NCBI RefSeq assembly: GCF_055900595.2
Contig: NZ_CM148325.1
Length of the DNA stretch: 64,000 nt
Direction: 5' to 3' (one strand)
Part shown: positions 2,686 through 46,190 of the stretch, one piece after another
Layout of the letters: each line of letters opens with the position of its first letter
How positions within the stretch are numbered: the first letter of the stretch is position 1
The notes under the pieces: generated by a model
The model's input: only the letters and a program-made list of their open reading frames with translations
What the model was told of the DNA's origin: nothing
Database searches by the model: none
Position numbers and translations under genes: made by a program

Positions 2686-3609
2686 ATGAATAATTTACCG
2701 CTGCTGAACGATTTGCGCGTCTTTATGCTGGTGGCTCGCCGGGCTGGTTTTGCCGCTGTGGCGGAAGAATTGGGCGTTTCACCGGCGTTCGTCAGCAAGC
2801 GCATCGCCTTGCTGGAGCAAACGCTAAACGTGGTGTTGTTACACCGCACCACCCGCCGCGTCACCATTACCGAAGAAGGAGAGCGGATTTATGAATGGGC
2901 GCAGCGGATTTTGCAGGATGTTGGTCAAATGATGGACGAACTTTCTGACGTGCGTCAGGTGCCGCAGGGGATGCTGCGTATTATCAGCAGCTTTGGTTTT
3001 GGACGACAGGTAGTGGCTCCGGCGTTATCAGCGCTGGCGAAAGCGTATCCGCAACTGGAGTTACGTTTTGATGTGGAAGACCGACTGGTCGATTTGGTCA
3101 ATGAAGGCGTCGATCTCGATATTCGCATTGGCGATGATATCGCCCCTAATTTAATCGCCCGCAAACTGGCGACTAATTACCGCATTCTCTGCGCGTCGCC
3201 GGAATTTATTGCGCAACATGGCGCGCCGAAACATTTAACCGATCTTTCTGCATTGCCGTGCCTGGTCATTAAAGAGCGCGATCATCCTTTTGGTGTCTGG
3301 CAATTACGCAATAAAGAAGGCCACCATGCGATTAAAGTTACCGGCCCACTGTCGTCTAATCATGGAGAAATTGTCCATCAGTGGTGTCTCGATGGGCAGG
3401 GGATTGCTCTGCGCTCCTGGTGGGATGTTAGCGAAAACATTGCCAGTGGTCATTTAGTACAAGTGCTACCGGAATATTACCAGCCAGCAAATGTCTGGGC
3501 CGTTTATGTTTCAAGGCTGGCGACGTCAGCGAAAGTGCGGATAACGGTAGAATTTTTACGCCAGTATTTTGCCGAGCACTACCCGAATTTTTCACTGGAC
3601 CACGCCTGA
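2686..3609 (+). CDS. dmlR: LysR-family transcriptional regulator of dmlA
   Basis: ORF track 2665-3609; start moved to MNNLPLLNDLRVF to give 307 aa as recalled for K-12; N-terminal HTH then LysR substrate domain. Confidence 0.88.
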   Translation: MNNLPLLNDLRVFMLVARRAGFAAVAEELGVSPAFVSKRIALLEQTLNVVLLHRTTRRVTITEEGERIYEWAQRILQDVGQMMDELSDVRQVPQGMLRIISSFGFGRQVVAPALSALAKAYPQLELRFDVEDRLVDLVNEGVDLDIRIGDDIAPNLIARKLATNYRILCASPEFIAQHGAPKHLTDLSALPCLVIKERDHPFGVWQLRNKEGHHAIKVTGPLSSNHGEIVHQWCLDGQGIALRSWWDVSENIASGHLVQVLPEYYQPANVWAVYVSRLATSAKVRITVEFLRQYFAEHYPNFSLDHA

Positions 3610-3717
3610 TTAATGATTCAATTATCGGGTTGATATCAGGTTAAACCCTGATTTTCTCCTTTCTAAGCCGCTAGAGATTGGTTAGCATATTCACCTTTAA
3701 TCGCGCATGATCGATAG

Positions 3718-4374
<657 letters not shown>

Positions 4375-4457
4375 TGCTTTCAGCCCGCGTTATCGCGGGC
4401 TTCCTGCCTGTAATCTTTCCTTATTCATCGCTGATACGGTGCTAAAGAGTAACCAAT

Positions 4458-4480
4458 AAATGGTATTTAAAATGCAAATT
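4458..4480. promoter_or_regulatory. Imperfect AT-rich palindrome upstream of yeaR, candidate NsrR-type operator
   Basis: aaatggtatttaaaatgcaaatt lies about 65 bp upstream of the yeaR start; yeaR-yoaG is a known nitrosative-stress operon (recalled); the match is judged by eye. Confidence 0.3.
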
Positions 4481-4546
4481 ATCAGGCGTACCCTGAAACG
4501 GCTGAAATAAACTGTTTTCAGCACATTCATCGAAGGAGGGAAAAGG

Positions 4547-4906
4547 ATGCTGCAAATCCCACAGAATTATATTCATACGCGCTCAACGCCTTTCTGGAAT
4601 AAACAAACTGCGCCTGCCGGAATATTCGAACGTCATCTTGATAAAGGAACGCGCCCGGGGGTTTACCCACGCCTTTCCGTTATGCATGGGGCGGTCAAAT
4701 ATCTCGGCTACGCTGATGAACACAGTACAGAGCCTGATCAAGTGATCCTTATCGAAGCGGGGCAGTTTGCGGTGTTCCCTCCAGAAAAGTGGCACAACAT
4801 TGAAGCCATGACTGACGACACTTATTTCAACATTGACTTCTTCGTTGCTCCTGAAGTCCTGATGGAAGGCGCGCAACAACGAAAAGTCATTCATAACGGG
4901 AAATGA
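4547..4906 (+). CDS. yeaR: DUF1971-family protein YeaR
   Basis: 119-aa ORF, GGAGG RBS, forms operon with yoaG; length and synteny match recalled K-12. Confidence 0.85.
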   Translation: MLQIPQNYIHTRSTPFWNKQTAPAGIFERHLDKGTRPGVYPRLSVMHGAVKYLGYADEHSTEPDQVILIEAGQFAVFPPEKWHNIEAMTDDTYFNIDFFVAPEVLMEGAQQRKVIHNGK

Positions 4907-4909
4907 ATC

Positions 4910-5092
4910 ATGGGCAAAGCAACGTATACCGTGACCGTCACCAATAACAGTAATGGCGTTTCTGTCGATTATGAAACAGAGACGCCGATGACTTTGCTGG
5001 TGCCAGAAGTGGCGGCTGAAGTGATAAAAGATCTGGTGAATACCGTGCGTTCTTATGACACGGAAAACGAACATGATGTTTGTGGTTGGTAA
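4910..5092 (+). CDS. yoaG: Small protein YoaG
   Basis: 60-aa ORF MGKATYTVTVTNNSNGVSVDYETETPM starting 4 nt after yeaR stop. Confidence 0.8.
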   Translation: MGKATYTVTVTNNSNGVSVDYETETPMTLLVPEVAAEVIKDLVNTVRSYDTENEHDVCGW

Positions 5093-5239: not shown

Positions 5240-5488
5240 ATGGGCATTCTGTCATGGATTATTTTTGGGCTTATTGCCGGTATTCTGGCGAAGTGGATCA
5301 TGCCAGGTAAAGATGGTGGTGGATTCTTTATGACTATCCTGCTGGGGATAGTCGGTGCCGTAGTCGGCGGATGGATCAGCACGCTGTTTGGCTTTGGTAA
5401 AGTCGATGGCTTCAATTTTGGCAGCTTCGTGGTTGCCGTTATTGGTGCGATTGTCGTGCTGTTTATCTACAGAAAGATCAAAAGTTAA
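5240..5488 (+). CDS. yeaQ: GlsB/YeaQ/YmgE-family small membrane protein
   Basis: 82-aa ORF MGILSWIIFGLIAGILAKWIMPG with glycine-rich TM helices; RBS GAGGA. Confidence 0.85.
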   Translation: MGILSWIIFGLIAGILAKWIMPGKDGGGFFMTILLGIVGAVVGGWISTLFGFGKVDGFNFGSFVVAVIGAIVVLFIYRKIKS

Positions 5489-5502
5489 CGCGTAAATTGC
5501 AC

Positions 5503-5536
5503 AAAGGCTGCACACAGGCAGCCTTTGCTATTTTTT
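5503..5536 (+). terminator. Rho-independent terminator after yeaQ
   Basis: Hairpin aaaggctgcacacaggcagccttt followed by T6. Confidence 0.55.
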
Positions 5537-5546
5537 AGATGTGACG

Positions 5547-5621
5547 TTACCACCATCCCAACTCAGTGCCGAGAACGACAATAATCGCTACGCCCATCAT
5601 AATAATCGTTGTTTTTTTCAT
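5547..5621 (-). CDS. yoaJ: 24-aa small membrane protein YoaJ
   Basis: Manual translation MKKTTIIMMGVAIIVVLGTELGWW; below ORF-track size cut-off; matches recalled K-12 small protein. Confidence 0.6.
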   Translation of the reverse strand: MKKTTIIMMGVAIIVVLGTELGWW

Positions 5622-5623
5622 CT

Positions 5624-5722
5624 TTACGCTCCCGGGGCAGCATAGCCGCCAATAAAAAACCATGCTAAAAATACGACCGCTGTAATAAAGATTACAACCG
5701 GAAAAATAATACCGATTCGCAT
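5624..5722 (-). CDS. yoaK: 32-aa small membrane protein YoaK
   Basis: Manual translation MRIGIIFPVVIFITAVVFLAWFFIGGYAAPGA; stop lies 2 nt upstream of the yoaJ start. Confidence 0.6.
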   Translation of the reverse strand: MRIGIIFPVVIFITAVVFLAWFFIGGYAAPGA

Positions 5723-5754
5723 GTTATCACCAATCAAAAGGATGTGAATACGCC

Positions 5755-6780
5755 TCAGGAATGTAGCGCTGAATGCGCGACAAAAGGTGTTTTCTGTTTG
5801 TGTTTTTTCTCCTGATACATCGCGATATCGGCAGCATGCAGGGCGCTGTCTGCATCGGTCGTTTCAGGATCGACTTCTACTATGCCAAGACTGGCACCAG
5901 GATAATACAAATCAACATCACCTAAGTGATATTCTCCGCGTATTTGCTGTTGAATACGTTCTCGCAGCGATGGAATATCCGCATTCTCATTGTTCAGTGA
6001 AACAACCAAAAACTCATCACCGCCGAGACGACCAATAACTTCGCCATTTTGCTGGAGCGTATTAAGGCGCTCGCCAACCTGAATAAGAAACAGATCGCCA
6101 CTATTATGACCAAAACGATCATTGATTAATTTGAAGTTATCCAGATCGATAAATGCGATCATTATCTTATGGTTAAGATGCCTCGCAAGAGAAAACAGCG
6201 TCGTCAGGTTTTCAAAAATCGCCCGCCGATTCGGTAGCCCGGTTAACGAGTCGGTATACGATTGCGCAATCAGTGCGGCATTTGCTTCGCGCAGCTGTTC
6301 AACCAGCGCCTCTTTTTGAATATATTGTGCAATCAGTCCGGCGAATAGCTGTAAAACCTGTTCCGCGCGTTCACTCCACTGGCGCTTCTCACTGCTGGCG
6401 GCGCAAAGTGTGCCATAGAATGATCCATCCGGTAAGTGAATTGGCGTGCTCAGAAATGTGGTGATGCCAAGATTTCGTGCCGCAACACAGTCGCCCCAAC
6501 GGTCGGGGACTTCATCGCTGAAAAAGCAGTTTTCATCAATGGCGCGTTTGCATAACGAGTAATCCCACGAGACGGTAAAATTCTCCGGGATGTGCATTTT
6601 CTGGCTATTACGGGCAAACATTATATGCTGCAGGCGCGCTTCGACATCCACTTTGGTCAGGTAGGTTGACTCCATATCAGTGACCATTTCCAGCATCTCC
6701 AGAAGCTGTCGGACCAGACTTTCCAGTGACTGTTCTTTGGCAAGGGATTGCGAGACGCGGGCGATAATCTGATCTGACAC
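5755..6780 (-). CDS. dgcP: Diguanylate cyclase (GAF-GGDEF)
   Basis: ORF track 5755-6909 trimmed to GTG start at VSDQIIARVSQ to give 341 aa as recalled; intact RLGGDEF motif. Confidence 0.88.
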   Translation of the reverse strand: MSDQIIARVSQSLAKEQSLESLVRQLLEMLEMVTDMESTYLTKVDVEARLQHIMFARNSQKMHIPENFTVSWDYSLCKRAIDENCFFSDEVPDRWGDCVAARNLGITTFLSTPIHLPDGSFYGTLCAASSEKRQWSERAEQVLQLFAGLIAQYIQKEALVEQLREANAALIAQSYTDSLTGLPNRRAIFENLTTLFSLARHLNHKIMIAFIDLDNFKLINDRFGHNSGDLFLIQVGERLNTLQQNGEVIGRLGGDEFLVVSLNNENADIPSLRERIQQQIRGEYHLGDVDLYYPGASLGIVEVDPETTDADSALHAADIAMYQEKKHKQKTPFVAHSALHS

Positions 6781-6962
6781 GAAACAACTCCAGGATACGG
6801 CGGGTAAATGCTGATTATTTAATCTTTGCAGGCATGATAAAACATCATCAACAAAGATGAAACAAGACGTAATATGTTTTGAGTGAATGTAATAAAAATA
6901 GTGCTGCAAAACAAAACGATACCGCGATACTCTAAGCTTGGATAAATATGTGAGATCAATAA

Positions 6963-7217
6963 ATGAAAATTATCAGTTTTGTTCTGCCTTGCTTGCTGGT
7001 CCTGGCTGGTTGTTCAACCCCTTCTCAGCCAGAAGCACCTAAACCGCCGCAGATTGGTATGGCAAATCCGGCGTCGGTCTATTGCCAGCAGAAGGGCGGG
7101 ACGCTCATTCCTGTGCAGACAGCGCAAGGGGTCAGCAACAATTGCAAATTACCGGGCGGTGAAACGATTGATGAATGGGCATTGTGGCGACGGGACCATC
7201 CGGCTGGTGAAAAATAA
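6963..7217 (+). CDS. yoaF: DUF333-family lipoprotein
   Basis: 84-aa ORF with signal peptide and lipobox LAGC. Confidence 0.8.
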   Translation: MKIISFVLPCLLVLAGCSTPSQPEAPKPPQIGMANPASVYCQQKGGTLIPVQTAQGVSNNCKLPGGETIDEWALWRRDHPAGEK

Positions 7218-7238
7218 CCGCCGGATGCTGCACTAAAA

Positions 7239-7586
7239 TCACAAGCTACGTAGCCAGTCTGCCAGCACCAGCGCATGGTTCTGTGTGGTGTTTTTTGCTG
7301 AGTAGAGCAGGGTCAGCGGCTGTTTTTTGGCGATGTCTGCCAGCCGCTTTCCTTCTTGCTCGTGTTGCGCCAGTTCTGCAAGATATTGCTCGCGAAAGGT
7401 TGCAAAATCGACGACTTCGCCGTGAAAGGCTTTGCGCAGCTCCGTTGACGGCGTGATTTCTTTATCCCACTCATCAAGGGCTAAATCGGTTTTTTTGATA
7501 CCGCGTGGCCAGAGGCGGTCGACCAGTACGCGATAACCATCGCTCTGTTCAGCCGGATCATAAACGCGTTTGCACTGAATATTCAT
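7239..7586 (-). CDS. yeaO: DUF488-family protein
   Basis: ORF track 7239-7607 trimmed to MNIQCKRVYDP (115 aa as recalled). Confidence 0.82.
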   Translation of the reverse strand: MNIQCKRVYDPAEQSDGYRVLVDRLWPRGIKKTDLALDEWDKEITPSTELRKAFHGEVVDFATFREQYLAELAQHEQEGKRLADIAKKQPLTLLYSAKNTTQNHALVLADWLRSL

Positions 7587-7640
7587 CGTATTTGTTCTTC
7601 CTTTCACGCATGATTTGTCACGTCACTATAGCACCGGATA

Positions 7641-8822
7641 TTAGCGAATTTCTTTGTCTCTCCCGGCGCAAAGTCCGAAAATCGCCATCAGTAGTGAAAG
7701 TATTGCAACACCCATCAGTGGTACGGACCAGTCACCGTTAGCATCGTGTATTTTACCCATCAGCGGCGGCCCACAGGCTGCCAGCAAATACCCGACGGAT
7801 TGTGCCATCCCCGAGAGTGCTGCCGCCTGATGCGCAGAACTTGCCCGAAGACCAATGAACGTCAACCCCAGTATCATTGTTGCGCCGGAACCAAAACCGA
7901 AAAGCAGAGTCCAGGTGATCGCGTGTGCTGGCATAAAGCAGAGCCCAACCGCGCCCACTGCGCACATCAAGGCAACGAACGCTGCAATACCACGCTGATC
8001 TTTCACATGATGTAAGAAAAGTGGGATCAGCAAACCGGGAGCTGCTGTGGCTAGTTGCAGCAAACCATGCAGTGAACCCGCCTGTGCTTCGCTATAGCCG
8101 TGACTGATGAGGATCGCCGGAAGCCAGCCAATAATCACGTAATAGACGAGTGAGTTGATCCCAAGAAACAATGTTACCTGCCAGGCAAGCGGCGAACGCC
8201 AGATACCCCGAGTATGTAAGGCGCGTGAGGTACTCAAATTTGCATGTTGTTGACTTCGCCACTGTGGCAGCCATAAAAAAAGAGCCAGCAGAGGAAAACA
8301 CATCAGCATGAGCAACGCGCCTTGCCAGCCAAAACCGTTCAAAGCCAGCGGCACGACCATAGCCGATCCCAGTGCCGCCGCAGCTCCCATTGTCAGGGAA
8401 TATGCGCCGGTAAGTCTGGCGACGGAATGAGGGAAATCGCGTTTAATTAATCCTGGCAGTAAGACATTGCCTAATGCAATCCCACCGCCAATGACCGCTG
8501 TACCGCCAAATAATAAGTAAGGCGAAGGGAGAGAGCGAATTGCGATACCTGCACAGATCAAAAGTAACGCGGCAAACAGGCTACGTTCCATACCAAAACG
8601 TCGCGCCACCGGGGCGGCAAGAGGTGAGATTAGCGCAAAGGCCAATAATGGCAGGGTGGTTAATAAGCCGGTTTGCGCCGTCGTTAGCGAGTAAGCGGAA
8701 CGAATCGTATCCAGTAACGGTGCTGCGCCGGTAAAGGTGACGCGTAATGTTGTGGCAATCATCAGAATGCCAGCGATAAGGACAATCCTGTTTTTGCCGC
8801 TTAATGAAGTTGAACAGGCCAT
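7641..8822 (-). CDS. yeaN: MFS transporter (CynX-like)
   Basis: 393-aa polytopic membrane ORF; synteny with nimR. Confidence 0.85.
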   Translation of the reverse strand: MACSTSLSGKNRIVLIAGILMIATTLRVTFTGAAPLLDTIRSAYSLTTAQTGLLTTLPLLAFALISPLAAPVARRFGMERSLFAALLLICAGIAIRSLPSPYLLFGGTAVIGGGIALGNVLLPGLIKRDFPHSVARLTGAYSLTMGAAAALGSAMVVPLALNGFGWQGALLMLMCFPLLALFLWLPQWRSQQHANLSTSRALHTRGIWRSPLAWQVTLFLGINSLVYYVIIGWLPAILISHGYSEAQAGSLHGLLQLATAAPGLLIPLFLHHVKDQRGIAAFVALMCAVGAVGLCFMPAHAITWTLLFGFGSGATMILGLTFIGLRASSAHQAAALSGMAQSVGYLLAACGPPLMGKIHDANGDWSVPLMGVAILSLLMAIFGLCAGRDKEIR

Positions 8823-8918
8823 ATGTTTCTCATTGATACAAACGAGGCTGTACCTTACCGTTTTTATTGTTATGTTGAATCAAGTTAAAATGACAAATTA
8901 TCGCTAAATTCGGACAAA

Positions 8919-9740
8919 ATGATGCACAGGTTGAATCTCAATGGTTATGAACCCGACCGACACCATGAAGCCGCGGTCGCATTTTGTATTCACGCCGGAA
9001 CGGATGAGTTAACCAGTCCTGTACATCAGCACCGCAAAGGGCAGCTGATACTGGCGCTACATGGTGCAATTACCTGTACGGTGGAAAATGCTTTGTGGAT
9101 GGTGCCGCCACAATATGCGGTTTGGATACCGGGCGGGGTGAAACATAGCAATCAAGTGACAGCTAACGCTGAACTCTGTTTTCTGTTTATAGAGCCCAGC
9201 GCAGTGACAATGCCGACAACATGTTGCACATTGAAAATATCGCCCTTATGCCGGGAATTAATTTTAACCCTGGCAAACAGGACGACGACTCAGCGTGCTG
9301 AGCCGATGACCCGCAGATTAATTCAGGTCCTGTTTGATGAACTCCCTCAGCAGCCACAACAACAGCTGCACCTGCCCGTTTCTTCTCATCCTAAAATCCG
9401 CACGATGGTGGAGATGATGGCGAAAGAGCCTGTCGAGTGGGGGGCATTGGGGCAATGGGCTCGCTTTTTTGCGATGAGTGAACGCAATCTTGCCCGACTG
9501 ATAGTGAAAGAGACGGGGTTGAGTTTTCGCCAGTGGCGTCAGCAGTTACAGCTGATTATGGCGCTTCAGGGATTAGTGAAAGGCGATACTGTACAGAAAG
9601 TTGCTCATACGCTGGGGTATGATTCAACAACGGCCTTTATTACTATGTTTAAGAAAGGCCTGGGGCAAACGCCAGGCCGATATATTGCGGGATTAACTAC
9701 TGTTTCCCCACAATCAGCGAAACCAGACCCGCGGCAATAA
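8919..9740 (+). CDS. nimR: AraC-family transcriptional regulator
   Basis: 273-aa ORF with C-terminal AraC-type HTH ([25 protein letters not shown]); divergent from yeaN. Confidence 0.85.
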
Positions 9741-10143
9741 GCGGGCCAACCGGTACGCCGCGAAACAGCGCCACGCCCAAAACAGTGCCCACCAGCAGCC
9801 CGGCGACCAGTTGCGGCTGGCTGCCCATTAACGTCACGCCGCGCCCACCTAGCCAGGAGACAATAACGCCTACTGCAATTGCCACCAGCGATTTCCAGTT
9901 CAGAAACGAGTGAATCAGGGTTGAGGGCGGTAGCGTCCCGCTGGCGATGGGGGCCATAACGCCAATCGTCAGAATGATTATCCCGATACTTAGCCCCTGT
10001 TTTTCAATCCACGGGAAAAAGGTGCTTAACGGTGTGACGCGGACAATGATTAACACCAGAATTGAAACGGCGACAGTGGTGTTATGACTGATAAAGCCCA
10101 GCGCAGCTAACCCGAGCAGGATCAGCAAAGTGACATCAAACAT
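9697..10143 (-). CDS. yeaL: DUF441/UPF0756 membrane protein
   Basis: 148-aa hydrophobic ORF; 3' end overlaps nimR 3' end by 44 nt (convergent). Confidence 0.85.
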
Positions 10144-10312
10144 CGTGGTTTCCTTGCCAAAAAATAATAAGCCTGCTTACTTTACGCTTGCTGCAGGAAG
10201 GAAGTAGAAAATCTTTACGTTTTTTGCATAAAAAATCAGGCGAACTGTCATCAAACTGCCATTTGTGCACGCTAACAATAACGTGAAAACAGCTATCTCC
10301 CCGGGGCATACT

Positions 10313-10417
10313 ATGAACGATCAAATGTTTGTCGAGACACTGATTATCACGTCATCGTTTTTTGCCATTGCTGTTGTGCTGGTTTTGTCCGTTCTGCTTA
10401 TTGAACGGACAGGCTAG
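10313..10417 (+). CDS. yoaI: 34-aa small membrane protein YoaI
   Basis: Manual translation [34 protein letters not shown]; stop TAG directly abuts the yeaK stop on the opposite strand. Confidence 0.55.
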
Positions 10418-10921
10418 TTACGCAGTGCGGCGGAAATTGACCAGTTCTGGTTGCGCAATGCGCAAATAATCCGCGGTTTTCAAAATAACGGATTTATCCA
10501 GCATGCCTGCATTGAAGGCGATTTCATCAAATCGTTCGAAGAGTAGGGGGTCGGCAACCAGTTTGAGTTTTGGATGGAAGCTGAAAGGGGGGATCGCGCC
10601 GAAGACACAGCCTGTGAGTTCATCGACTTCCGCCGGGCTGGCCAACGAAGCGCGTAATCCGCCTATATGGATGGCAAGTTGGCTCAGATCGGCCTGTTGA
10701 TCGGCAGCGAGGATCGCCAGAACATGTTGATTTACGCCATTGCCTTTGACTTTACATACCAGTGCCTTAGCCCCCTGGCCTAAAGCGGTGCCACGAATTT
10801 CTGACACCGCTTCGCATTTACCTACCGCCTCATGGGTAACGACGCGGAAGTCAGCACCTTCTTGTGATAATAAAGCGATTAACCGCTGATGCGTCACGCT
10901 TCCTTTAGCCATTTCAGTCAT
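10418..10921 (-). CDS. yeaK: YbaK/ProX-like aminoacyl-tRNA deacylase domain protein
   Basis: 167-aa ORF; family signature and synteny. Confidence 0.85.
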   Translation of the reverse strand: MTEMAKGSVTHQRLIALLSQEGADFRVVTHEAVGKCEAVSEIRGTALGQGAKALVCKVKGNGVNQHVLAILAADQQADLSQLAIHIGGLRASLASPAEVDELTGCVFGAIPPFSFHPKLKLVADPLLFERFDEIAFNAGMLDKSVILKTADYLRIAQPELVNFRRTA

Positions 10922-10963
10922 TTCACGCTCCTGAGATTACAAGCAAACAACCACAGAAGATTA

Positions 10964-12454
10964 TCATGAACGGCTGTTTTTGTTCTGCTTATTGACATAT
11001 AAACGCTCATCGGAAGCTTTATACGCATCATGTAACGTATCGTTTTCTTTCATCGCATAAATACCGGAAGAGAAGCCGATCTCTTTCTGCGGCGCGATAT
11101 GTTGCAGACGTTTTTCGATACGTTCAGGCAGTTGTGCTGCAATTTGCGGCGTCGAATCGACAAGAATGATGCAGAATTCATCGCCACCGAGTCGGATGGC
11201 ATAATCACTTTTACGAATCGACTGTTTAATCGCCTGAGCTAATAACGTAATCGCTAAATCTCCTTCCTGATGACCGAGCGTGTCATTTATTTGCTTTAAC
11301 TTGTCCATGTCAATTGCAATAAACATCACCGAAGAACCAGATTGCACCAGTTTTTGCAACCGCTGCTCCAGTTCAGGGGTTAATATTTTGCGATTATACA
11401 GTCCGGTCATCGCATCACTAATATTTTCTCGCGACACATTTTGGTATAAACGGAAGTGCATCCGCACCATATTCAGCAAAATTAACGCCGTCAAAATCCA
11501 GAACAGAACGCTTTTCCACGAAGATGTGATAAAGTAAAGAATATCAATGGATAACGATACACGAATGCCGCCCGGTAAGTCATGGACGTAACTGACATAC
11601 TGGAACAGATTATCTTCGCTCTGGTTGATGATAATGTCGCGCCCAGAATCTGTATCGGTTAGCGTGACATTGAGAAAACGCCAGAGGAGAGGGCGGTCAT
11701 GCGTGTAAAAGATATTCCGCAGATTGTTTTTGTTAATATCCAGCAGCACAATTCCTTTTAGCTGCCCTGCAACATACACTGGCGTCAGCAAACTCATCAC
11801 GTTCTGTTTAGTACGCTGATCCTGGTAAATGCTCGATAATACGGTGCGACCGGTAAAAACTTTTTCAATATCTTTGCGATCGATGCCAATGCTTCCTGAC
11901 TGCAGGAAGGACCAGTTATTCATCGCAAAGTACTCAACATTAACCGGCTCATAAAAATAGACATAGAGGTCATTGAGATCGAGATAATAGTGAAATTTCT
12001 CTTCGGCCATTCCAAGACCTGAACCATAATCATCCTGGTGGCGGTTGCCTTCCACTGCCTGATCAAAAGCGGGTAATAGTGCTGCAGCTTCCACAATTGT
12101 GTCGCATTCAGTGGATGCGGTTTGTAGTGTACCGTGTAAGCCCGTGTACTTATGGGCAGTCAGGTTTAAGCCATGGGTATTATTGGCAGACTCAAAAGCC
12201 TCGCAGATGGTACGCCGCTGTTCTGGCGACACTTCCGACTGCTCAGCAGCGAGAGCGCGCATCACATGCGCGGCAATACTCTGATTTTGATACTTGTCAT
12301 AAAGAAAGGAGGAATCTGCTCTCTGCACGATATAGCGCAGATAGGCACTCATTGCTCTGTCGCTGGCGACAAGTTCAAAAATAAGGAAGGAAGATGTCAG
12401 CACAATGACACTTGCGGCGATAAAATGCCGGAGCATTCTATGGTGCAATTTCAT
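10964..12454 (-). CDS. dgcJ: Membrane-anchored diguanylate cyclase
   Basis: ORF track 10964-12634 trimmed to MKLHHRMLRHF (496 aa as recalled); intact RLGGDEF motif. Confidence 0.88.
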   Translation of the reverse strand: MKLHHRMLRHFIAASVIVLTSSFLIFELVASDRAMSAYLRYIVQRADSSFLYDKYQNQSIAAHVMRALAAEQSEVSPEQRRTICEAFESANNTHGLNLTAHKYTGLHGTLQTASTECDTIVEAAALLPAFDQAVEGNRHQDDYGSGLGMAEEKFHYYLDLNDLYVYFYEPVNVEYFAMNNWSFLQSGSIGIDRKDIEKVFTGRTVLSSIYQDQRTKQNVMSLLTPVYVAGQLKGIVLLDINKNNLRNIFYTHDRPLLWRFLNVTLTDTDSGRDIIINQSEDNLFQYVSYVHDLPGGIRVSLSIDILYFITSSWKSVLFWILTALILLNMVRMHFRLYQNVSRENISDAMTGLYNRKILTPELEQRLQKLVQSGSSVMFIAIDMDKLKQINDTLGHQEGDLAITLLAQAIKQSIRKSDYAIRLGGDEFCIILVDSTPQIAAQLPERIEKRLQHIAPQKEIGFSSGIYAMKENDTLHDAYKASDERLYVNKQNKNSRS

Positions 12455-39936: not shown

Positions 39937-40722
39937 TTAGTTCCGGATGTTTAAACGTGATATGCGCGGAGCCCTTCTTAAAGTATCTGATACTGAACAT
40001 CTCATCTTCATAGCACTCTTTACCCTGAACAGACTGGATGTGCCATCCTGATGAATGGTTATGTTTTTCCCGTTGCCGGGGATGGGGGTGCCGCTGAACA
40101 GATGTAGCATTCTTTCCAGGTCGGCGAGTCGGTCAGTCTGTTGTCCGGTGATAAGATGAAATCCCCACCGGTCCCATCTCACCAGATTGTTGATAATGAT
40201 TTTACTTCCAAATTTACAGGGAGAGTTGGTTTTATAATTCCAGCTCAGTTCCCTGAAGACGTTAATCACTCCCCGCTTAAACACCTCATCCTTGTTCTGG
40301 TGCACTTGTTCAAATGTGCTCAGAATGTTCGCTTCGCTGATTTCCTGAAAATTATCGTACTCCAGTGAGCGGTACCATGTATCACGGGCCTGTGCATCCA
40401 TTAAGGAAAGCATCCCTGAACGTTGCATCAGGTCACGCCAGATTTCACGGTCAAGGTTGCGGGTAATGGCTTTCATTGCGGTTTCCTGTTTCTCCTTCAG
40501 CCAGCAGCCACAGCGAAAATCCTGTTTCATGGCCCAGTCCGGGGCGGTTTTACCTCCAATACTTTCCGTCAGAATTGAGATTTTAGCCAGTTGCCGGATA
40601 AGTGTGTCGATTGGCAACAGTGTACTCTTTCGTACAGCCAGAATGTGGCAGACTGAGGTGGAACAGATAACGTCCGTATGCCCGCTGACCACCTCCGGGC
40701 GGGAGAGTGTGGTATCTGACAT
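39937..40722 (-). CDS. Hypothetical protein, first gene of the island next to the core junction
   Basis: 261-aa ORF, separated from the upstream YeeW-like gene by a hairpin terminator; no family recognised from sequence alone. Confidence 0.45.
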   Translation of the reverse strand: MSDTTLSRPEVVSGHTDVICSTSVCHILAVRKSTLLPIDTLIRQLAKISILTESIGGKTAPDWAMKQDFRCGCWLKEKQETAMKAITRNLDREIWRDLMQRSGMLSLMDAQARDTWYRSLEYDNFQEISEANILSTFEQVHQNKDEVFKRGVINVFRELSWNYKTNSPCKFGSKIIINNLVRWDRWGFHLITGQQTDRLADLERMLHLFSGTPIPGNGKNITIHQDGTSSLFRVKSAMKMRCSVSDTLRRAPRISRLNIRN

Positions 40723-40806: not shown

Positions 40807-41232
40807 TCACCGGTTCTGGTGCAGAAGTTGCAGTTGGTGCAGGGTACGGATATCCTCCCTGGCCTGTTCGATACAGGGCAACAATGCTGCCGAATCCGTT
40901 TTATCCTCATCGTTGTCGAAAATAATTCCGGACCCGCAGTCGATATTGTCCTGCAGCCACGCAATGAGGATATCCAGCGCTGTTTCAGTGGTTAATGGCA
41001 TCACGCTCTGTATCACTGTATTGTCTTCCGGCAACTGATGAGAGCTGGCAGAAGTCGCCGGTGTTTCGGTAGCGTCACGTTCATCCACCACGCGGAGTGA
41101 ATAACCGTATTCAGCGACCTTGTTAATCAGTTCAGTGAGCTCAACACCATCAATGTCAACGACAATTCGCCCTATATTCAGTGCCTGTACGTTAACGCTG
41201 TCTGCTTCCAATGTCAGGGCCAGTTTCATCAT
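40807..41232 (-). CDS. YeeW-like protein following the CbtA-type toxin
   Basis: 141-aa acidic ORF whose start overlaps the toxin stop (ATGA); position matches yeeW in CP4-type islands. Confidence 0.6.
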
Positions 41233-41603
41233 TTCGCCTCCGGATACTTACCCAGGGTAATGTTATTTACCGTTCTGTAATTGTCGCGGGTCATCAGGCC
41301 GGTCGCCCTGCGAGCCCGGAGGATATCGATGCTGTTTATTAACTGAGAGCGGGTACAGGCGCTGAATCCCGGCTGGTCGGTACGCACCAGCGCGTATTTT
41401 TCCACGAGAAAGTTCACCGCATCACACAGTGAAATGCCTGCCTCAATATGCAGCTCAATCACGCGTTCATCCGCGAACGGTGTGTCATTCAGCGTAAGGC
41501 TGTAATGCTGGTCCAGTAACCGGGTGAGCAGTGTCTGCCAGATGGTGACGGGAGACGGGCAACACGATGCCTCCCGTACATGCGTGTCGGGTAATGTTTT
41601 CAT
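41229..41603 (-). CDS. CbtA/YkfI/YpjF-family toxin (type IV toxin-antitoxin)
   Basis: 124-aa [40 protein letters not shown] sequence typical of the CbtA family. Confidence 0.8.
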
Positions 41604-41692
41604 AATGAAGATTTTCCTGATATGCAGAGATAAAAAATGGGACAGTGGCGTGGTGAAAACACCAGGCCGGAGCAGAAGATTATTCTGATGAT

Positions 41693-42061
41693 TTACTTTT
41701 TCGTTTCGGGCGTCGGATAAACAGCCAGATAAACGTAACCACAGGAGCCGAGGGTGTCGGCTTCACAGGTCAGCCCCTTCGCATACAGTGTCACGGTATG
41801 CTGATGGCGGGGATTCAGTTCACCGCTGGTGAGCATGAGCTCCAGTTGTTTCATCGGCAGCGGAAAGGCCTGGTCCGGATGGTACGCATCCGCATCTCTG
41901 AACCGGCCTCTGATACCGGCACGGTCGGCAAGGTAATGCAACCGGTTACCCTCCTGCACCAGACGTGCCCCGAAACAGGGCGTCACGGTGCAGGGCAGTC
42001 CCCACCAGAGGCGGTCGTGATTGTCGTCGTGATGCGTTGTCCCGGGGAGTGTGTCTGACAC
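41693..42061 (-). CDS. CbeA/YafW/YfjZ-family antitoxin
   Basis: GTG start at 42061 (GAGGA upstream) gives 122 aa [38 protein letters not shown]...; ORF-track version carries an upstream extension. Confidence 0.8.
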
Positions 42062-42110
42062 GATAAAATCCTCACAGAAAATCGTTGAATGATAGTTTAA
42101 CTTTGACAGG

Positions 42111-42755
42111 TCAGCCGGTGCGCAGACCGGCTTCGGTGAAGGTGTATTCGTTGATGAGAAGGGCCTCATCCACAGGGGCATCTGAGGTCAGCCTGTTGTG
42201 CTCGTTTTCCAGTTGACGGTACAGCCATAAGGCCAGGTCGCGCAGGGCTTCGCTGACAGCGGCTTCCGCATCTGTTGTCATAGTCTGACCAGTCGGACTG
42301 TTCCGGGTAACAGTGATATCCATGCTGTACGGATGGCAGTAGCGTCCCCGGCGGTGGATTTCAGCCTGCAGTTGCCAGAAGTTACGCTTCTGCACCGCCT
42401 GCAGGGCATCCGCGATACGATGGAGTTCATGCTCCTGTGGGGCATACTTCCGGATTATCCGGGCTGTCGCCGGCTGCCAGTGCCAGCGTCCTTCAAAACA
42501 GGCTCCGTCCCCCTGGCTGCAGCATCCGCTGAACCAGATGCACGGCTCTTCCATAAACCTGCCGTTGCTGAGCCGGAAAACGCGCTGGCGGAGGTCAATT
42601 CCGAAAATGTCACAGACCGCCCTGAAGTCCTCATACACGTTTTCATACCAGTTGCTGTCAGCATGATGCTGACGGTACCCGTCGCGGGCTTTTCCCCGTA
42701 CCGGGCAGGAAAGTTCATCCAGCGTATACACTGTGATGGTGATAATGCTGCTCAT
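42111..42755 (-). CDS. Hypothetical cysteine-rich 214-aa protein inserted between the DUF987 and antitoxin genes
   Basis: ORF with RBS AAAGGGGA; contains CIWFSGCCSQGDGACFEGRWHW cluster; no family recognised. Confidence 0.5.
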   Translation of the reverse strand: MSSIITITVYTLDELSCPVRGKARDGYRQHHADSNWYENVYEDFRAVCDIFGIDLRQRVFRLSNGRFMEEPCIWFSGCCSQGDGACFEGRWHWQPATARIIRKYAPQEHELHRIADALQAVQKRNFWQLQAEIHRRGRYCHPYSMDITVTRNSPTGQTMTTDAEAAVSEALRDLALWLYRQLENEHNRLTSDAPVDEALLINEYTFTEAGLRTG

Positions 42756-42773
42756 CAGAATCCCCTTTCTGAT

Positions 42774-42995
42774 TCAGTTCAGGGTGACGCTCATCAGCCG
42801 GACATACGGGCCAAAACTGTCCTTACGGCGTTCAGCAAACACGGCCAGCACACCGGGAATATCCTGTACTTCACGACCGGTATACGTCTCAGCACTGCCG
42901 TGCCAGCGGTACTTACCGGTGCAGAACGGAAATAGACGGGATGCAGGATGCTGTTGGTGAATACGCATGGCTTCACCACGGGTGATAATTTTCAT
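42774..42995 (-). CDS. DUF987-family protein (YeeT/YkfH-like)
   Basis: 73-aa ORF MKIITRGEAMRIHQQHPASRLFPF; canonical position between radC-like and antitoxin genes. Confidence 0.7.
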   Translation of the reverse strand: MKIITRGEAMRIHQQHPASRLFPFCTGKYRWHGSAETYTGREVQDIPGVLAVFAERRKDSFGPYVRLMSVTLN

Positions 42996-43408
42996 AATGG
43001 GATACCTCTGAAGACAGAAGATAAAAGTGAAAACAGGTGTGATGTGGTTGTGACGGGTTAAAGCAGACCATGTTCGGCAAAGGAGAAAACCTGGCTGCCA
43101 CCGACTATCAGATGGTCCGGCACCCGGATATCCACCAGGCCCAGTGCCTGTACCAGACGTTCCGTGATAAGGCGGTCTGCCTTGCTGGGTGTGACTTCAC
43201 CGGACGGGTGATTGTGCGCCAGCACCACGGCAGCGGCATTGTGGTACAGGGCGCGTTTAATCACTTCCCGGGGATGGACTTCCGTGCGGTTGATGGTGCC
43301 GGTGAAGAGGGTTTCACCGGCAATCAGCTGATTCTGGTTGTTCAGATACAGCACCCGGAATTCTTCACGCTCCAGTCCCGCCATGTTCAGAATCAGCCAT
43401 TGTAGTGG

Positions 43409-44659
<1,251 letters not shown>

Positions 44660-44810
44660 ATTCCCGTGCCGCATGCGTGGAGGTGAAGGCCACGCCGGGT
44701 TCATGAAGATGGCGGTCCAGGGCTTTCAGGGCCCGCTGAATGAGGCTGCGCTCTCTGGTTGTCATTTCTCCGGGCAGAAAGGAAATCTGTTGCATTGTTC
44801 CGGCCCCCTT

Positions 44811-45290
44811 TCAGTCAATGATGCGCATAATGGCGCTGCATTCCGGATGCTGCAGGGCGTAATCCCGCAGACGGTAATAATGAACCGTCATGGCATAACA
44901 CTCCGTACGGCAGGCGTGATGACTGTACGTCATCAGACAGGCAGCAATGCCGGCGGCTTCCGGGCTCATTTCAGCGCGGTTACCGTTCATGGCATTGAAC
45001 AGTACCCATGTTTCGTCATCATCATCATCCGGTTCGGGGGCCATAAATGCCCCGCCGTTGTTCAGGGTGTACAGATTCCAGATACCACCGCAGTAGTCTT
45101 CGCACAGACGGTCCATCCAGCCGAAGACACGGGGCTCCAGGGTCACCCACTGTGGAATGAGGCCAAAATGCTGCGGCCAGAAGCTGATGCGCTGTTCATC
45201 AGGGACGAGGCTGGCAACCAACTGAGGCGGATTATTCTCTGGTGTTGTAGCTGAATAAATTGTGGGGGTATTCTGAGAAACGGTTTTCAT
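44811..45290 (-). CDS. Antirestriction protein (KlcA/ArdB-like)
   Basis: 159-aa ORF with acidic stretch EPDDDDDE and the conserved C-terminus recalled for YfjX/YafX-type antirestriction proteins. Confidence 0.75.
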   Translation of the reverse strand: MKTVSQNTPTIYSATTPENNPPQLVASLVPDEQRISFWPQHFGLIPQWVTLEPRVFGWMDRLCEDYCGGIWNLYTLNNGGAFMAPEPDDDDDETWVLFNAMNGNRAEMSPEAAGIAACLMTYSHHACRTECYAMTVHYYRLRDYALQHPECSAIMRIID

Positions 45291-45371: not shown

Positions 45372-46190
45372 TCAGCGCATGCTCTCCAGCAGCGTTTCTG
45401 CCATCACCCACAATGCGCGGTTGAGTTTTATATCGGTATCAATGCTGTGAATGGCCCGGGTATGGATACGTTTTCCTTTTGCACTGCGACCGGAAATCCC
45501 GCCTTTCAGCATATTCTCCTGGATGGTCTGATAAGCACTCCACAGGTCCTTACCGTAATCCTCCCGGCGTCGTGGTGTCAGAATGTCGGCGGTGGTGACG
45601 GGCTGATGTTCGTCACCATAACGGTAAGTCAGTGCCGCCTGTGCCAGCGCCTGGCGTGCCGGTGGCGGCAGGACCAGCGACTGCATGGCATCACGCTTCT
45701 CCTCTATCCGGTCAAACACGCCCACCACCTCGTAAGCCCCTTCAATGACTCTGTCCACCACATTTCCCCGGTGCGGAACACGCACTTCCCCCAGAGACTG
45801 ACCGCAGACGCATCCGTTCTGGCAGACGAACCTGAAGTAACCCGGCAGCATCTGGTAGCTGGAGGTACCGTCATGGGAGTTCAGCAGGATGATTTCAGGG
45901 ACATGTTGTCCGTTTATCTCCCCGTCACGGCGCAGACGCAGCATGTGTTTGGTATACCCCCGGCGGCCCGGGTCACGTACGCGGGTCTGGCAGGCGAAGA
46001 ATGGCTGAAAGCCTTCCCGCTGCAGGCTTTCCAGCACGGTGATGGTGGGGATGTATGTATAGTTCCGGCTCCGGGAGGTGTGTTTATCTTCCCCGAAAAT
46101 CCCGGGCACATGGTGCATCAGCTCTTCACGGGTCAGCGGACGGTCACGGCGTATCTGGTTCGCATAACCAAAACGACTGGCTAATCGCAT
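45372..46190 (-). CDS. DUF932-family protein (YafZ/YfjQ-like)
   Basis: 272-aa ORF MRLASRFGYANQIRRDRPLTREELMHHVPGIFGEDKHTSRS. Confidence 0.75.
   Translation of the reverse strand: MRLASRFGYANQIRRDRPLTREELMHHVPGIFGEDKHTSRSRNYTYIPTITVLESLQREGFQPFFACQTRVRDPGRRGYTKHMLRLRRDGEINGQHVPEIILLNSHDGTSSYQMLPGYFRFVCQNGCVCGQSLGEVRVPHRGNVVDRVIEGAYEVVGVFDRIEEKRDAMQSLVLPPPARQALAQAALTYRYGDEHQPVTTADILTPRRREDYGKDLWSAYQTIQENMLKGGISGRSAKGKRIHTRAIHSIDTDIKLNRALWVMAETLLESMR

Follow-up and report, generated by a model that had tools for sequence, protein, structure and literature searches.

The 214-aa gene and its family

We analysed a 214-aa open reading frame (ORF) that lies, in a 64,000-nt stretch of contig NZ_CM148325.1 (RefSeq assembly GCF_055900595.2; the whole stretch is hereafter called the window), between a DUF987 gene and the two genes of a CbtA/CbeA-type toxin-antitoxin (TA) pair. 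On the minus strand the genes follow one another in the order DUF932, antirestriction, RadC/JAB (split by an IS3-type insertion sequence), DUF987, 214-aa ORF, YeeU-type antitoxin and CbtA-type toxin, and then a DUF5983/DUF957 remnant, a frameshifted DUF4942 gene and the chromosomal gene ynjB (Table 1). The antitoxin and toxin genes share 64-74% identity or better with CbeA/CbtA homologues. An earlier note, made from the sequence of the window, had described the ORF, its ribosome-binding site and its spacings of 18 and 49 nt exactly as we found them, without giving the strand, which is the minus strand. Precisely, the stop codon of DUF987 occupies positions 42774-42776, 18 nt upstream of the ORF, and a spacer of 49 nt separates the stop codon of the ORF from the GTG start of the antitoxin gene. 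Simple scans for minus-strand promoter and terminator signals found none between 45341 and 41433, which is compatible, as weak evidence, with co-transcription of the block.

Table 1. Features of the minus-strand block around the 214-aa gene, in order of transcription (positions are those of the window; PGAP, the NCBI annotation pipeline)
Feature	Positions	Strand	Remarks
DUF932 gene	45372..46190	minus	farthest upstream feature listed in the co-oriented block
Antirestriction gene, PF03230 / phrog_10132, KlcA/ArdB type	44811..45290	minus	co-oriented block
RadC/JAB gene, 5′ part	44659..44795	minus	
IS3-type insertion sequence, 1258 bp	43401..44658	minus	splits radC
RadC/JAB gene, 3′ part	43058..43400	minus	upstream, co-oriented block
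DUF987 gene (YeeT/YkfH/YpjJ homologue)	42774..42995	minus	adjoins the 214-aa ORF upstream
Shine-Dalgarno-like AAAGGGGA	42761..42768	minus	5 nt before the ATG of the 214-aa ORF, within the 18-nt spacer behind DUF987; read from the sequence
214-aa gene, DUF8835 / phrog_5162 family	42111..42755	minus	ATG start; single compact alpha/beta domain
YeeU/CbeA-family type IV antitoxin gene	41693..42061	minus	GTG start at 42061, the same as the PGAP start
CbtA-family toxin gene	41229..41603	minus	
141-aa ORF after the toxin gene, DUF5983-DUF957 fusion	40807..41232	minus	in-frame deletion product
DUF4942 gene	39937..40722	minus	at the island edge, next to ynjB; PGAP calls a frameshift in strains with matching sequence

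The ORF is a real gene under selective constraint, and its product is a soluble protein with a single domain. Compared with its enterobacterial homologues, the ratio of nonsynonymous to synonymous substitution rates (dN/dS) was 0.18-0.47. Clustered at 90% identity, the homologues formed 2288 groups; when 1.84 billion representatives were searched exhaustively with phmmer, 2753 representative clusters at 50% identity were obtained (E<=1e-3), with members nearly all 205-220 aa long and aligned end to end. We considered as an alternative that the ORF is spurious, or a decaying pseudogene without a product, as could be imagined from the IS3-type element that breaks the operon upstream and from the decay of the neighbouring DUF5983, DUF957 and DUF4942 genes. 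This is barely credible for a frame that is intact and of full length, with a dN/dS well below 1, thousands of full-length homologues and a confidently predicted fold. A spurious ORF had been named in the earlier note as one of the outcomes that would undo its proposal; the substitution ratios, the number of homologues and the model quality (mean predicted local distance difference test, pLDDT, 96.0) speak instead for a real gene.

We surveyed 5426 complete genomes of E. coli by megablast with the ORF alone (coverage >=80%). The gene was present in 1942 of them, about a third, in up to 8 copies per genome, and the carriers included Nissle 1917, ATCC 25922, EC958 and NCTC86. In total, 2952 places were found for the 214-aa ORF and 12912 for DUF987 (the latter in 4802 genomes), hence about 23% of the E. 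coli DUF987 modules carry the gene. The survey of islands for its presence or absence had been proposed in the earlier note, and its outcome does not agree with the rarity of the intervening gene which that note had implied.

Nor is the gene unrecognised, as had been supposed. The RefSeq protein WP_045146861.1 is identical to the window protein and is routinely annotated in RefSeq genomes of E. coli, under the name "hypothetical protein" in one record and as a DUF8835 domain-containing protein in another. Routine annotation within this island family was another outcome by which the earlier note would have considered its proposal refuted, although the known domain that it had envisaged is, in this case, only a domain of unknown function. 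In the PHROGs database the protein also matched phrog_5162, likewise of unknown function, at E=6.4e-31, its residues 3-212 aligning with positions 3-197 of the 201 in the profile. There was no Pfam-A match even at E<=10, in a copy of the database that evidently predates the DUF8835 entry. We therefore took membership in DUF8835 from the RefSeq name of the identical protein, since the Pfam-A copy is without that model. A scan of the protein against NCBIfam gave no match, and a literature search on DUF8835, DUF6915/DUF6878 and DUF987/DUF932 found nothing relevant. The family is already catalogued (DUF8835, phrog_5162).

Regarding nomenclature, we noted that the same or a near-identical protein bears three different product names across RefSeq records, and that the misspelt product name "DUF8835 domain-containing pootine" occurs in NZ_CP135671.1, NZ_CM194009.1 and NZ_CM185171.1 (locus L002, positions 4412-5056).

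In an alignment of 91 family sequences the conserved core reads F-S-G-F-x-S-Q-G-D-G-A-[CS]-F-E-G, with the motif SGFxSQGDGA[CS]FEG at residues 76-89. Further conserved positions in this alignment are E14, L15, G52, P106, L111, H141, W177, Y179, L182, N202, F206 and G210. Conservation was rechecked after the addition of four distant phage homologues (25-36% identity), and S76, G77, F78, S80, Q81, G82, D83, G84, A85, Y139, H141, R172, L182, F206 and G210 were still conserved, while N202 was kept in three of the four. The window protein has the motif and also Y139, H141, R172, N202, F206 and G210, its sole departure being a cysteine in place of F78.

This bears on the cysteine cluster that the earlier note had pointed out. 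The cluster, in CIWFSGCCSQGDGACFEGRWHW (residues 72-93), is present in the window copy, but it is not conserved across the 91 aligned sequences. A metal- or redox-binding protein built around these cysteines would be in keeping with the seven cysteines of the window copy, four of which fall within CIWFSGCCSQGDGAC. Position 78, however, is Phe in 91% of the members, position 79 is variable and position 86 alternates between Cys and Ser; the number of cysteines per member ranges from 0 to 10, and none of the columns that are invariant, or almost so, is a cysteine. We considered this explanation as very improbable and effectively refuted by the alignment.

The structure prediction proposed in the earlier note was run with AlphaFold2 and gave a confident fold (mean pLDDT as above; predicted template modelling score, pTM, 0.88) with no solved relative. 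In the model, two N-terminal helices are followed by a six-stranded antiparallel region that bears the glycine-rich SQGDG loop, and then by two helices, a beta-hairpin with Y139/H141 and a long C-terminal helical pair. Foldseek against AFDB50 returned members of the family only. Sequence and profile searches of the Protein Data Bank (PDB) returned nothing meaningful, and no fold relative was found there, including no match to a helix-turn-helix (HTH) or other DNA-binding fold; therefore, the fold gives no functional lead. Pfam-A gave no match to CbeA/YeeU (PF06154) or CbtA (PF06755), and hhalign of the family alignment against that of YeeU gave a probability of 0.2%. Likewise, no similarity in sequence or fold to characterised ArdA, ArdB/KlcA, ArdC or Ocr proteins was found.

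Structural neighbours in AFDB at a template modelling score >=0.9 carry "antitoxin" names, which in the literature refer to RelB. We rejected an identity as a RelB-type antitoxin: no RelB or PhdYeFM domain was found with Pfam and NCBIfam, and no RelB-like PDB chain by sequence or profile. The names are unsupported, as the protein has homology neither to RelB nor to YeeU and the adjoining toxin is of the CbtA type, not of the RelE type. The only family of matching name in the supplement of PMC11541004 appears to be RelB-like and was not used. The AFDB entry A0A4P9WST2, from a fungal assembly (Blyttiomyces helicus, 969 aa, annotated with DUF4326), contains a full copy of the domain, with 56% identity. 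Contamination by a bacterial contig, or the merging of gene models, is the probable source of this entry.

Gene contexts in enterobacteria and beyond

Among the enterobacterial loci examined two arrangements were found. In type A (E. coli, including a 62% variant) the order is DUF987, family gene, CbeA and CbtA. In type B (Klebsiella michiganensis and Salmonella; locus L070, positions 5296-7086, and loci L096-L102) the order is DUF987, one or two copies of CbeA, family gene and CbtA. In the Salmonella loci CbeA is present as two divergent paralogues in tandem, which share 34% and 74% identity with the antitoxin of the window, and in these loci the start of the family gene overlaps the stop codon of CbeA (ATGA).

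The CbtA/CbeA (YeeV/YeeU) pairs of the K-12 cryptic prophages CP4-44, CP4-6 and CP4-57 belong to the same island family and lie in the same co-oriented block as the pair of the window, but they are two-gene systems without the 214-aa gene, whose protein shares no homology with either partner. In CP4-44 yeeT is followed directly by cbeA, with a gap of 73 nt, which agrees with the gene order given for CP4-type islands in the earlier note. In E. coli AR_0137 the stop codon of DUF987 is followed immediately by the last ~113 nt of the 214-aa gene, stop codon included, and behind this remnant cbeA and cbtA are intact. Since AR_0137 has kept the 3′ remnant, the arrangement without the gene is a deletion derivative of the arrangement in the window; the shorter layout of the K-12 type arose by deletion from the layout of the window type.

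Beyond E. coli we ran a species-level scan, with one genome per species, which gave 542 loci. The neighbour counts below refer to the best 80 of these 542 (79 alphaproteobacterial loci at 55-59% identity and one of Salmonella) and are seed-based; greedy ORF calling lost the target in 38 GC-rich loci. CbtA, YeeU and DUF987 were found, among these 80, in the Salmonella locus only, and were absent from the other 79. A RadC-like gene stood upstream of the family gene in 43 of the 80 loci, and directly downstream, in 53 of them, there was a gene of ~1440-1490 aa of the methyltransferase/AAA_34 (strawberry-notch) kind, in which a methyltransferase-like N-terminal region is followed by an AAA_34/strawberry-notch helicase part (positions 6795-11117 of locus L022 and equivalents). 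In alphaproteobacterial loci the next gene after this giant gene is one of ~345 aa with weak similarity to the C-terminus of TraI. More divergent members of the family, in metagenomic loci too, adjoin ParB_N/DUF6915/AAA_34 genes, phage-like blocks of small genes or islands with orphan methylases.

In Alphaproteobacteria the family gene is preceded, in 66 of the 80 loci, by a conserved ORF of ~140 aa with the consensus MADYFTHFSCLLDVGTP...GLWGFQYANTCSRPRLDAFGGGAHV, which overlaps it by exactly 8 nt at its start (e.g. positions 5571-6008 in both L022 and L109); this overlap suggests that the two may be translationally coupled. The ~140-aa ORF had no Pfam match, and hhalign against DUF987 gave a probability of 0.8%; no homologue of it was found in the window, in the enterobacterial islands or in the phage loci. 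We therefore rejected a universal two-gene cassette formed by the family gene and its upstream neighbour, because this ORF is unrelated to DUF987 and without homologues in these three settings. Judged from these comparisons, it is a partner specific to the alphaproteobacterial clade and not a universal one.

With tblastn the family was found on 110 plasmids, mostly alphaproteobacterial, 41 of which were typed as conjugative, and in 57 phage genomes. Three gene orders were seen on the plasmids. The first runs H-NS, SSB, DUF932, RadC, RadC, DUF6878, small ORFs, family gene and MbcA/RES, the last two genes being a TA pair unrelated to CbtA/CbeA that lies downstream of the family gene on one Pseudosulfitobacter plasmid. 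The second consists of DUF6878, small ORFs, family gene and antirestriction gene. The third has ParB, a small ORF, the family gene, DUF932 or an antirestriction gene, and the giant strawberry-notch gene, with virB genes alongside.

The phages with a family gene include phages of Caulobacter, Acinetobacter, Pseudomonas, Brevundimonas and Erythrobacter, Vequintavirinae of E. coli, and jumbo phages of Erwinia, Serratia, Klebsiella and Salmonella. Their homologues sit in blocks of small unannotated genes near the end of the genome: in CcrColossus the homologue, gp015, lies at a distance of 8 kb from the left end, while the terminal repeats enclose the gene in several Bertelyvirus phages. No CbtA/CbeA gene was found in any phage locus examined. 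The carriers of the family are mobile DNA of Proteobacteria, namely enterobacterial islands with P4-type integrases, alphaproteobacterial plasmids and islands resembling integrative and conjugative elements, and lytic and jumbo phages.

These contexts bear on the proposal of the earlier note that the ORF is a third gene of a type IV TA operon. Taken across the loci compared, the family does not appear to be a specific component of this module, and mostly it occurs without CbtA/CbeA. A third component in the strict sense, be it a regulator, a chaperone or a co-antitoxin, and if only in enterobacteria, is in our view unlikely, even though several observations favour it: in the enterobacterial islands the family gene always has the orientation of the TA pair and stands close to it; antitoxin and toxin even flank it on either side in Klebsiella michiganensis and Salmonella, with the ATGA overlap in the latter; on the Pseudosulfitobacter plasmid it precedes another, unrelated TA pair; and in K-12, which is without the gene, the neutralisation of YkfI by YafW is only partial (PMC5371832). 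To these can be added a 343-aa protein in which the gene is naturally fused in frame to CbeA (positions 3001-4032 in loci L008-L010, e.g. CP138416.1); the fusion originated by a change of the stop codon from TGA to TTA together with a deletion of 34 nt in the 49-nt spacer. The AlphaFold2 model of the fusion (pTM 0.60) had low confidence in the YeeU part, for which the alignment was shallow, and no confident packing of the two domains, and it is uninformative as to an interface. The observations on the other side are broader. About 77% of the E. coli DUF987 modules are without the 214-aa gene, and the deletion derivative AR_0137 keeps its TA pair intact. The three CbtA-family pairs of K-12 work as two-gene TA systems, and the toxin is not neutralised by the genes farther upstream in their operons (PMC5371832), CbtA/CbeA is missing from nearly all of the best species-level loci and from the phage loci, and the protein matched neither YeeU, nor an HTH or DNA-binding fold, nor any PADLOC model. 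A TA-linked role in enterobacteria is possible because the gene adjoins CbeA/CbtA in every locus examined there and because rare fusions to CbeA exist.

Possible role of the family

We lean, by a small degree, towards considering the 214-aa protein as a stand-alone accessory protein of mobile elements, with a function in establishment or anti-defence. Among the three guesses of the earlier note (regulator, second toxin or anti-defence factor) the last would be the most plausible; its observation of the gene is confirmed, and its interpretation is partly supported. In the mechanism that we propose, entry of the element's DNA into a cell, or its activation there, would lead to joint production of the protein and of the antirestriction, RadC and DUF932 proteins, and the protein would have a cytoplasmic target which many hosts share and which is distinct from CbtA/CbeA. 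Its placement beside the TA pair would then reflect the known clustering, within one region of mobile elements, of genes for TA pairs, antirestriction, methylases and SSB.

As for the target, a few polar residues stand out, namely S76, S80, Q81 and D83, in the loop of a glycine-rich beta-hairpin, together with Y139, H141, R172 and N202. Their invariance from the E. coli islands to phages of Acinetobacter, Caulobacter and Pseudomonas (for N202, with one exception among the four phage homologues) suggests binding of, or chemical action on, a conserved ligand, which may be a nucleic acid, a nucleotide or a conserved host factor; the pattern is less consistent with a mimic of shape. A more specific version, which we hold only tentatively, is that of an effector with a new fold, possibly an enzyme or a ligand binder organised around the SQGDG loop, Y139/H141 and R172, which islands, conjugative plasmids, integrative and conjugative elements and lytic phages would all deploy early after DNA entry to evade or disarm a widespread host function. 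Less likely is a variant in which the protein was co-opted in enterobacteria to adjust, as an additional partner, the activity of the CbtA/CbeA pair, a TA system acting on the cytoskeleton.

The reading of the protein as an accessory of mobile elements is brought closer to known systems by the leading regions of conjugative elements, where genes for anti-defence proteins, methyltransferases, SSB and TA pairs are over-represented; one third of the most prevalent leading-region families are uncharacterised and ~10% of the families analysed bear phage-associated annotations (Samuel et al., Nature 2024, PMC11541004). As in those islands, the neighbours of our family are co-oriented antirestriction (KlcA type), orphan methyltransferase, SSB, TA and small genes, and, as with families of those islands, the family is common to phages. 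Unlike the leading-region systems, however, the island in E. coli is not known to transfer by conjugation.

Other points weigh against an establishment or anti-defence role. The role is inferred from gene neighbourhood only, and a position in a leading region, close to an origin of transfer (oriT), is likewise putative. The PADLOC scan of the protein gave no match. Every enterobacterial locus examined has the family gene next to the CbeA/CbtA pair, in two different positions, and the rare fusion to CbeA is found in several E. coli assemblies. In the window itself, the IS3-type element upstream may block expression of the 214-aa gene altogether.

We also weighed an acidic DNA mimic of the ArdA/Ocr kind that would block type I restriction enzymes. 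The family is acidic (median isoelectric point, pI, 4.79) and has in common with ArdA, ArdB (KlcA) and Ocr a small size, a cytoplasmic location, an occurrence on plasmids, islands and phages, and genes placed beside one another in the same operons. Antirestriction genes, orphan methylases and RadC adjoin it in many elements, and its phage homologues are, as described above, found among small unannotated genes towards the ends of the genomes. The window copy, on the other hand, is only mildly acidic (pI 5.9, with 29 D+E against 24 K+R), and the protein has neither a Pfam match to ArdA, ArdB or Ocr nor structural likeness to solved antirestriction proteins. Moreover, conservation is concentrated in a few invariant polar residues and the glycine-rich loop, not spread over an acidic surface, which suggests a ligand-binding or catalytic site and not DNA mimicry. 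We give this explanation little credence.

For the window, the 214-aa gene is of little note, being a common and annotated gene of the island, of which the K-12 layout is the deleted version. The family, with ~2750 clusters confined to mobile DNA and common to islands, plasmids and lytic phages, is worth experiments: it combines a confident fold without a solved relative, an invariant polar site and antirestriction neighbours, and it is a sensible target for anti-defence screens.

Decay of the island in the window

No tRNA gene was found anywhere in the window, and therefore the edge of the island does not lie at a tRNA gene. The IS3-type element ends in terminal inverted repeats (TGTAGTGG...) and is flanked by a 3-bp target duplication, CAT, at 43398-43400 and 44659-44661. 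In otherwise near-identical strains radC is uninterrupted. The insertion may be polar on the DUF987, 214-aa and TA genes downstream.

At the other end of the block, the 141-aa ORF corresponds to the N-terminus of DUF5983 in residues 2-57 and to DUF957 in residues 80-141, while PGAP annotates 40807-41232 as a partial DUF5983 pseudogene and a separate DUF957 gene. With this fusion ORF the operon ends in a decayed state, and the distal end of the island, with the frameshifted DUF4942 gene near ynjB, is likewise decaying.

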